A stretch of 64,000 bases of DNA, from positions 92,196,001 through 92,260,000 of the forward strand of contig NC_086108.1 of NCBI RefSeq assembly GCF_963921235.1. The letters are read 5' to 3'. Made by a program: the position numbers and the translations under genes. The DNA comes from Mobula hypostoma (Eukaryota). Below are positions 24,942 to 27,271 of the stretch, piece by piece (the first letter of the stretch is position 1; the number at the start of each line of letters is the position of its first letter). The notes below the pieces were generated by a model. The model worked only from the letters and a program-made list of their open reading frames with translations. It was not told the DNA's origin and did not search any database.

Positions 24942-25759
24942 CTCATAAATTCTTCTCATAAATTTGTAAGTTTATGACATTTCAATTCTACTTTAATCAC
25001 ACATGTACAGTACATTCGAATTTTAATCTTGCTGTCTGTAGATATTTAGAAAAGGTGTTAAGCTTTGTGTCATAGAATCTTAGCACCAGAACAACTAGCC
25101 TGCGCTGACCACAGCAACCAGCCTGCTAGCCCAGTTGCCCACGTTCAGCCCATAACCCTCTAAGACCCTCCTCTCCATGTACCTATCCAAATGCCTCTTA
25201 AATACTGTGATGTACCTGCCTCCACACACTTCTCACTGCCCTCTGTGTAAAGAAGTTACCTCTCAGTTCTCTTTTAAATCTTTCCCTTCTTATTTTGAGT
25301 CTGTGCCCTTTAATTTTAGATTTCCCAGCCCTGGGGAAAGGACAATGATCATCCACTTGCTTTTAGCTTCTGGTTTTGCTGTAAGGAAATCCCATGATAC
25401 CTCTAGTTTCTGAGCCTACTTGACGATATCACACCTGCAGGATGTCAGAAGTCCCATCTGGTTTCAGGAAAAGGAGAAGCCAGGCTGCAGAATGCGTTAG
25501 ACCTTTGTGGTCAGCTTTCTTCAAGGTCAATGACAAGCACTGGTAATTTGTCACTGACTGGAGAAACTGACCCAAAGCATTTACACTATGCAGTACCTCA
25601 AAAGGACGAGACTCTATATTAACTTGTGACCGGTAGCATCTTAATCAATCTCTGTTCTGCCACTGCTAAGCATTACAAGGCAATGTTGGAATCTGCTTGT
25701 GGTTCACAGATTTTTCAAAGGTAAAAACTTTCAGTAAATAAAGGTAAGTAGTAATGACT

Positions 25760-26185
25760 TAGTCTGGTGAGGAGGGTGTGAGGACACCCAGCACGACTGA
25801 AAAAACAACAAGACCTGACAAAGGGCGGATGAGTTCCTTGTGAGCCAACGGCCATCTTCTGTGGAAGAGATTAAAGCCTCACCACGTATCTACGAGTATT
25901 ATGCTATGCACTTAGTTAGAAGAGACATGATGAACTTGGGTGCTGCCCCGTGTGCCTGGTCCTGCCCAGCTAGGGAAGGGTAGAGCTCGAAGAGGCGGCC
26001 GCGGCTGGAGGCCGACACGGCCTCGGGCTCGAGTTCGGCGGGGGCAGCGGCGGGCGGTGCCAAGGTGGCCAGCGAGAACAAACTGGAGGAGAGGCTGCAC
26101 TCAGTGCTGTCGCAAGACAGAAGAAGATGGAGGTGCATAGCCGTCAACCCCAAATTCGGGATGGCACCCACTGACAGACTGACTG
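25760..26185 (+). mobile_element. Non-autonomous RTE-type element with a captured GC-rich insert
   Basis: 10-bp TSD agtaatgact (25750-25759 and 26186-26195), (GACT)n-like tail, and a 3' end encoding QDRRRWRCIAVNP, similar to an RTE C-terminus. Confidence 0.8.
25984..26110 (+). pseudogene. ZFTRAF1: Captured fragment resembling ZFTRAF1/CYHR1 first coding exon
   Basis: Translates SSKRRPRLEADTASGSSSAGAAAGGAKVASENKLEERLHSVL. From memory, vertebrate CYHR1 has KKRLR-(Ala-rich)-GKLEERLYSVLCC. Not database-verified. Confidence 0.65.
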
Positions 26186-27271
26186 AGTAATGACTGTTCT
26201 CTTCAGAATCTTCTGTAAATCAGAACATTATAAATGCACAGATGCACAGTTGGAAACTGTTTACTCTTTTTCTAGTATTCCATTTTAACTTGGCTCACCA
26301 GGAAAACACTATCCAGCTGTTGTGTGATGGCCCATAATGGGCTCATGAATGCACGTACGGTGTTATCAAAATTTTAAAGAAGGATATTATAGCAAGAATT
26401 ATCTTCCTGTAAGCAACTATTGACACAAGACAATTATCATAGGATAAAATGGAGTCATAGGTACAGCTTGGGTTTGGAAAAATGCACAGGTTCATGCAGT
26501 TCAAAGTTGAAGAGAGCAACGTTGGTAAGAGAATTTTGTAATGGACGGTAAGATGGGCAGGCAGTAAGGATAAGGTGGGTCTGAGTATGATGGCAATTGC
26601 AAGATTAATATTCTTTATTCTATAAAGAGAATGAATGAACTGACACAACATAAGTATTAGGGGAATAGTACTAAGCATTTTTCATGATATTATCAATAAA
26701 TCAATTACATTGGAGAAGTGGAAATTACAGGAAACATTCTGCATGGATCCAGAGGGAAGTTAATTTTTCATACATTCACTGTTTTTTTGTGGAGTGTGAC
26801 TGGTGCTCCTTCATCTAAAATAACTTTCTTTTCTCTTACATAAAAGCTGGCCTAAGTGTAAAATCTTTGTATTTACGTTGGCTTTGCAGACACAGAAACA
26901 CACACATCCCAAGTAATTGGCAGCTTGCTGGTCATTTTCACAGCAGGTTTATGAAGTGAAAATAACCAAAAAAGTAAATATATTAAACTCATTGTTGATT
27001 GATTGCACCACGAGCATTTCGAATAAACCACCATCTGATCAGCAAACCTTGTAAAGTCCCACCGTTAATAATGACTACCTTACATAGGGTAATACTGAGA
27101 TCAAGGAGCATGTCAGTCTACACATTTACAGGAGAACAATGAAATTAGAACTGGTGCAGGAGAAAGTAGAAGCAGATGCAGGCATTTTACCCTTTAACAC
27201 GGTCTAAAACCTTGATGCCTTCATGGCTTGGTTGTAATCTTCCCCATATACTGTATCACTTAATAACTTAT

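Follow-up and report, generated by a model that had tools for sequence, protein, structure and literature searches.

A circularly permuted piece of ZFTRAF1 exon 1 in the body of a multicopy, RTE-type LINE-derived family of Mobula hypostoma

Introduction

RTE LINEs belong to the four clades described as producing two-ended non-autonomous elements (PMC5786205), and the bipartite RTE LINEs named there are Bov-A, RTESINE1/2, WALLSI3 and MAR4_MD. Host sequences multiplied by retroelements have been described in several forms. The pseudogenes of mouse circRFWD2 carry exact exon-exon back-splice joins within LTR flanks and number 33-42 copies (PMC4897178). SVA_F1 and pt_SVA_D6 hold exon 1 of MAST2 and of STK40, respectively, as colinear pieces gained by splicing at the 5' end, with 84-94 copies (PMC6139936). 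Retrocopies made by double template switching of LTR elements are colinear and display microsimilarity at 25 of 29 joins (PMC5131818), and the head of snoRTEs is a non-coding RNA (PMC4233971). At the DNA level, germ-line insertions of eccDNA in which a source ordered A-B reappears as B-A are single and mostly local in the set described, from which transposon-overlapping cases were filtered (bioRxiv 10.64898/2026.09.03.749254).

Capture of genes by retroelements is thus already known and so, separately, are insertions of the AB-to-BA type. In this study, we describe a family that unites a carrier derived from a LINE with a coding exon in permuted order and has reached hundreds of copies, a combination not found in the literature searched. 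The search returned neither a permuted capture that had been amplified within a family of LINE origin nor this family itself, for which Repbase and Dfam may hold entries. The copy from which the analysis started lies in a stretch of 64,000 nt of Mobula hypostoma (NC_086108.1, positions 92,196,001 to 92,260,000, forward strand), referred to below as the window.

Results

The copy in the window is flanked by a 10-bp direct repeat and consists of two LINE-derived parts enclosing two pieces of a host exon. Its features, all on the plus strand of the window, are as follows.

25750..25759, + strand: left target-site duplication (TSD), 10-bp direct repeat, its last 4 nt shared with the element
25760..25941, + strand: RTE LINE 5' region (5'-truncated UTR, likely LINE start codon at 25906, first codons), 87-94% identity with near-full-length LINE copies in their 5' part
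25942..25972, + strand: host piece B, ZFTRAF1 exon 1 (= G000:C5:228091045-228091006, minus strand, 40 nt)
25973..26110, + strand: host piece A, ZFTRAF1 exon 1 (= G000:C5:228091183-228091046, minus strand, 138 nt)
26111..26185, + strand: RTE LINE 3' end (final codons of the ORF with its stop, then the GACT-repeat tail), family and LINE majorities agreeing at all 64 nt compared
26186..26195, + strand: right TSD, 10-bp direct repeat

The first-pass annotation had reported the 10-bp repeats, a GACT-type tail, a CpG-rich middle and a frame from ATG 25927 interrupted by a single TAG at 25981, and all of these were recovered. The repeats lie at 25750-25759 and 26186-26195, and equally spaced 10-mer repeats were met at 5 of 20,000 random window positions. 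CpG density from 25941 to 26109 is 8.9 per 100 nt vs 0.8 in each flank. Two of its measurements had to be revised. What was taken for an element of 426 bp is a 5'-truncated member of a family of about 579 bp, beginning at about position 143-147 of the family majority; where it is truncated there is a brief overlap, the final 4 nt of the left TSD matching the family sequence too. The host-derived part, placed at 25984-26110, in fact extends over 25942-26110 and is composed of two pieces in swapped order. A 10-nt deletion in the LINE 5' region (25760..25941) is common to the whole family, and a 9-nt deletion within piece B is private to this copy. The likely start codon was inferred from an intact 1010-aa relative.

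The resemblance of the middle part to ZFTRAF1/CYHR1, proposed in the first-pass annotation, was borne out both by protein search and by mapping to exon 1 of the gene in the same genome. With a 54-aa piece of a natural family copy, three protein matches were obtained among 608 candidates, all of them ZFTRAF1/CYHR1 of rays and skates; a Pfam search of this piece gave no match. When the sawfish ZFTRAF1 protein was mapped to the genome, four exons were located in order along a single contig; exon 1 is followed by a GT donor and exon 2 preceded by an AG acceptor, so that the genome possesses a single intact ZFTRAF1 gene. The family insert and the gene share 178 nt at 98% identity, with three substitutions and no indel. 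The source piece is entirely exonic, lies within a CpG island (CpG o/e 0.87-1.22) and is inserted in sense relative to the LINE. No local tandem duplication of exon 1 was found within 6 kb around the exon.

Alignment of the family to exon 1 yields two matches, A of 138 nt and B of 40 nt, which follow each other as A-B in ZFTRAF1 and as B-A in the element. In the gene, B begins one base after A ends, with neither gap nor overlap, so the insert is a cyclic shift that covers a unique source completely. The columns at the junctions are uniform across 66 copies. All three joins are blunt: at the B-A join the flanking host bases show no terminal homology when read without indels; at the LINE-B join 14 of 16 LINE copies cease to agree with the family as soon as B begins, one copy has two more bases in common and one is rearranged; and at the A-LINE join the LINE differs from A immediately upstream. 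The piece B ends 4 nt short of the exon-1 donor. The junction is therefore non-colinear, as in circRNA pseudogenes, but does not fall exactly at donor and acceptor, and the intact donor-to-acceptor back-splice join has no match in the genome vs 494 matches for the observed join. The colinear A-B joint occurs once, in ZFTRAF1 itself, which leaves no concatemer or colinear retrocopy with that exact joint. In three RNA folds of exon 1, the two ends of the piece never pair with each other.

Searching the genome with the window insert gave 1,837 first-look candidates, and 39 of the 40 that were scored are other loci at 88-91% identity. A 42-aa piece used as protein query gave 1,020 candidates, of which 150 were scored. 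An 18-mer spanning the internal B-A join has 494 exact matches (control, 0) and is matched by 27 of 42 copies chosen independently of it, leading to an estimate of ~770 copies or more, which is likely too low because well-kept copies were sampled. The suspected multicopy family is thereby established. A total of 76 loci spanning the core were reduced to 66 distinct copies by duplicate removal. Their majority sequence is 579 nt long, and their mean divergence from it is 5.7% (3.1% at non-CpG and 17% at CpG positions). The 5' starts range from position 1 to 287, TSDs of at least 8 bp are present in 34/66 copies vs 1/66 swapped controls, and the tree is star-like, with 0 of 63 nodes at support 0.95. 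The many copies, TSDs, varied 5' truncation and tail characterize a unit that was retrotransposed as a whole. Non-CpG divergence is 3.1% for the family (66 copies) and 2.7% for the LINE (24 copies), which points to a single period of activity and equal age.

An older host-like subfamily was sought and rejected: the three sites diagnostic of host and family show the host allele in 4/66, 1/66 and 2/66 copies, never jointly, and among the 66 copies those with host alleles share no non-CpG marker. Two copies on one contig (L016 and L024) have several private changes in common, from a secondary source copy or gene conversion. Four protein-search matches with equal scores and frame length were noted on G000:C116, C144 and C186, which suggests copies in a duplicated segment or assembly duplicates.

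The RTE origin claimed earlier for both flanks was confirmed, since the 5' and 3' parts align to a resident RTE-type LINE. The family is made of the two ends of this autonomous LINE, whose interior of ~2.9 kb is replaced by the 178 nt of ZFTRAF1, and thus has the composition of a bipartite non-autonomous RTE element. A LINE 3'-end pattern excluding piece A has 193 genome matches; the 30 loci examined comprise 27 LINE ends and 3 family copies, and 16 LINE copies retain the 5' region. Near-full-length copies of ~3.2-3.5 kb contain a single endonuclease-reverse transcriptase frame, which is broken. RVT_1 scored above cutoff in one piece, and the N-terminal part matches exonuclease III. The best relatives are single-ORF proteins of ~1010 aa with domains PF03372/PF14529 and PF00078 only, and three LINE copies together cover them end to end. 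The LINE accordingly encodes AP endonuclease and reverse transcriptase in one ORF, with no separate ORF1 or RNase H, and its 3' end is short, the ORF leading straight into the GACT tail. Several of its protein matches are labelled craniofacial development protein 2, which we take to be a label given to RTE-type ORFs. The LINE likely belongs to the RTE clade, a name given from its anatomy rather than from a tree.

The last 75 nt of the family are the LINE end, and its 5' part is the LINE UTR with the first codons, minus 10 nt. The head, which occupies the first ~135 nt of full-length copies such as L027, consists of a shortened LINE 5' UTR preceded by the same UTR in inverted form. The family is accordingly not a classical SINE with a tRNA-, 7SL- or 5S-derived head and Pol III promoter, its head aligning to the LINE 5' UTR and the inverted copy thereof. 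The head is predicted to fold as a long hairpin (-86.4 kcal/mol for 151 nt, a value given without shuffle control) and is a possible source of double-stranded RNA. Rfam searches of two family and two LINE loci returned no relevant match and one irrelevant match below threshold.

Short parents without the insert, with LINE ends 5-35 nt apart, gave no match to an exact pattern that diverged parents could escape. Six matches without the start of B were considered as such parents, and every one is a family copy; a further match with LINE-like continuation proved to be a family copy that carries a single substitution. An exact-match pattern, which may miss diverged sequences, likewise revealed no autonomous copy having the family-type head.

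Two LINE copies, L060 (G000:C2:23.087 Mb) and L063 (G000:C2:25.188 Mb), have a common foreign insert of ~345 bp near the LINE 3' end that resembles the end of another LINE in antisense. Their flanks and tails differ, indicating that a source copy already interrupted by the insert moved again and took it along. Of the 16 LINE copies with a 5' part, 5 (L116, L119/L071, L120, L122 and L130) are internally inverted or rearranged, as would be expected from twin priming.

The frame of the family majority is open for 93 codons, from the likely start of the LINE to its stop. The TAG at 25981 is therefore private to the window copy, and the family majority has a sense codon there, a possibility raised in the first-pass annotation. 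Piece A is read in the host frame and is also in frame with the LINE C-terminus, two coincidences with a joint chance of 1 in 9, and piece B is read out of the ZFTRAF1 frame. The mini-ORF is frameshifted in 17 of the 66 copies, carries stops in 16 and is intact in 30. The synonymous share is 0.393, compared with 0.368 predicted by the rates found outside the ORF (p=0.12), and 8/33 indels are multiples of 3. Stops are fewer than expected by share (16 vs ~26, p=0.046) in a set where 5/66 copies were chosen by protein search. We read the mini-ORF as decaying about neutrally, with no sign of protein function in these substitution patterns, and the role proposed earlier for a dispersed peptide is left unsupported by the frameshifts, stops and neutral-like synonymous share. 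The host piece is likely a passenger.

The ZFTRAF1 gene (L078, G000:C5:228091183-228091006) differs from the family majority at 0/40 CpG positions, 18 of which are synonymous (P about 0.05), and CpG decay in the family copies amounts to ~15% per site. Judged from these sequence counts, the comparison suggests that the CpG island of ZFTRAF1 stayed unmethylated despite hundreds of decaying copies.

Discussion

On balance we slightly favour the view that a covalently closed 178-nt circle of exon 1, either microDNA or RNA, was captured exactly once round by a LINE and gave rise to a family of about a thousand copies, of which it forms the body. The genome would thereby have been seeded with near-identical copies of a CpG-island exon, from which silencing RNAs could be directed against the essential ZFTRAF1. 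In a moth case, as far as described, retrocopies yield small RNAs against their own source gene. The exact abutment of A and B indicates one molecule traversed once round, because two independent jumps would hit adjacent bases about once in several hundred.

For the nature of this molecule, we give about an even chance to a single capture in which the LINE reverse transcriptase copied one piece of exon-1 RNA exactly once around. The enzyme would start on LINE RNA, leave it after ~75 nt and enter a 178-nt exon-1 RNA with closed ends, the closure being either a non-splicing ligation into a circle or an end-to-end template jump. It would copy A, pass to the end of B, halt at its entry point and complete the cDNA on the LINE 5' region. 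The product would retain the LINE 5' region, with a likely promoter, together with the 3' recognition end, and so could be spread in trans by the LINE protein. According to the part of their account that bears on this, Dong et al. allow non-colinear junctions to arise by reverse transcription through open RNA with close ends (PMC4897178).

An all-exonic piece in sense to the LINE that ends 4 nt before a donor suits RNA over random DNA. The LINE interior was lost simultaneously with the capture as far as visible, no insert-free short parent having been found, and the TSDs, 5' truncation, star-like tree and LINE-equal age also conform to capture of RNA. Against it, no intermediate is visible, and routes through RNA and DNA give identical sequence. 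The joins lack the microsimilarity of LTR-type template switching (median 6 bp in the cases described in PMC5131818), folding pairs no ends of the piece, and the 178-nt length and CpG-island source suit microDNA well, going by its description in PMC6511871.

Those last two properties are explained by a DNA microcircle, which we regard as possible though less probable: a nucleosome-sized microDNA from the ZFTRAF1 CpG island, opened at A|B, would have been ligated into a broken or nascent germ-line RTE copy whose interior it replaced, and this founder would then have been retrotransposed. The change from AB to BA is the signature of eccDNA insertion, found in 82/327 source-resolved human insertions in the preprint as described (bioRxiv 10.64898/2026.09.03.749254); blunt joins are compatible with end-joining; and the two LINE copies that took a nested foreign insert to different sites demonstrate that passengers are carried. 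However, this route requires that a single LINE copy out of a few hundred underwent both the insertion and a 2.9-kb deletion together, and the sense orientation, exonic source and 4-nt donor distance all become coincidence. Moreover, of the 82 human cases 80 lie on the same chromosome as their source and 78 no more than 10 Mb from it, as given in that preprint, whereas a non-exhaustive search identified no founder near ZFTRAF1.

A spliceosomal circRNA, formed from the exon-1 donor to a cryptic acceptor within exon 1, copied once round and later shortened by 2 nt, appears rather improbable. Since A opens with AG and B stops 4 nt ahead of the donor, a donor-to-AG join minus 2 nt reproduces the observed one; the founder carries other small deletions relative to the LINE; and circRNA-derived pseudogenes are known, with 33 high-confidence circRFWD2 copies in LTR-rich flanks in the set described (PMC4897178). 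But the absence of the intact back-splice join beside 494 observed joins, the location of the supposed acceptor in purine-rich sequence lacking a pyrimidine tract, and the fact that the observed join read as blunt requires no indel all speak against it. The original proposal of a plain double template switch on colinear ZFTRAF1 mRNA, dispersing an in-frame peptide with a basic motif, draws on the two matching frames, the 93 open codons and the shortage of stops, but is very improbable, being refuted by the second, swapped host piece upstream, which requires at least three joins, and by the decay of the frame.

If a closed exon-1 molecule was captured as we favour, the family preserves an unusually clean trace of a host molecule that was circular or was copied once round, and this trace became fixed in the germ line. 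Its three readable joins allow tests of template jumping by the RTE reverse transcriptase. The family also provides a natural test of off-target silencing, in which the copies lose CpG and ZFTRAF1 keeps all 40. Family transcripts would resemble ZFTRAF1 back-splice reads and so blur the mapping of exon 1 in this lineage.

Host-exon capture is hereby extended to LINE-derived two-ended elements, and amplification is far above that of circRNA pseudogenes (33-42 copies) and SVA first-exon subfamilies (84-94). The family resembles the bipartite RTE LINEs in its two RTE ends without coding interior, microsatellite tail, TSDs and probable spread in trans; it differs from them in that the ends are bridged by a permuted 178-nt coding host exon, a host-gene insert being absent from the descriptions in PMC5786205. 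With the mouse circRFWD2 pseudogenes as portrayed in PMC4897178 it has in common a multiplied, non-colinear host exon sequence associated with retroelements, whereas its join lies off the splice sites, its carrier derives from a LINE and its copies number several hundred or more. The exact cyclic permutation of a unique source is shared with the AB-to-BA germ-line insertions of eccDNA or microDNA (bioRxiv 10.64898/2026.09.03.749254; PMC6511871). In size and CpG-island source the captured piece resembles microDNA as described in PMC6511871, the insertion sizes of the preprint being placed in its supplements; here the piece resides inside a mobile element and was amplified. The family and the SVA_F1 and pt_SVA_D6 subfamilies described in PMC6139936 all include a GC-rich host first exon in a non-autonomous non-LTR element, but in our case the exon is internal and permuted, and the copies are about tenfold more. 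Finally, as in the LTR retrocopies (PMC5131818) and snoRTEs (PMC4233971) described, host RNA would have replaced part of a retroelement and the chimera was mobilised again, here with a coding exon unlike the non-coding head of snoRTEs.
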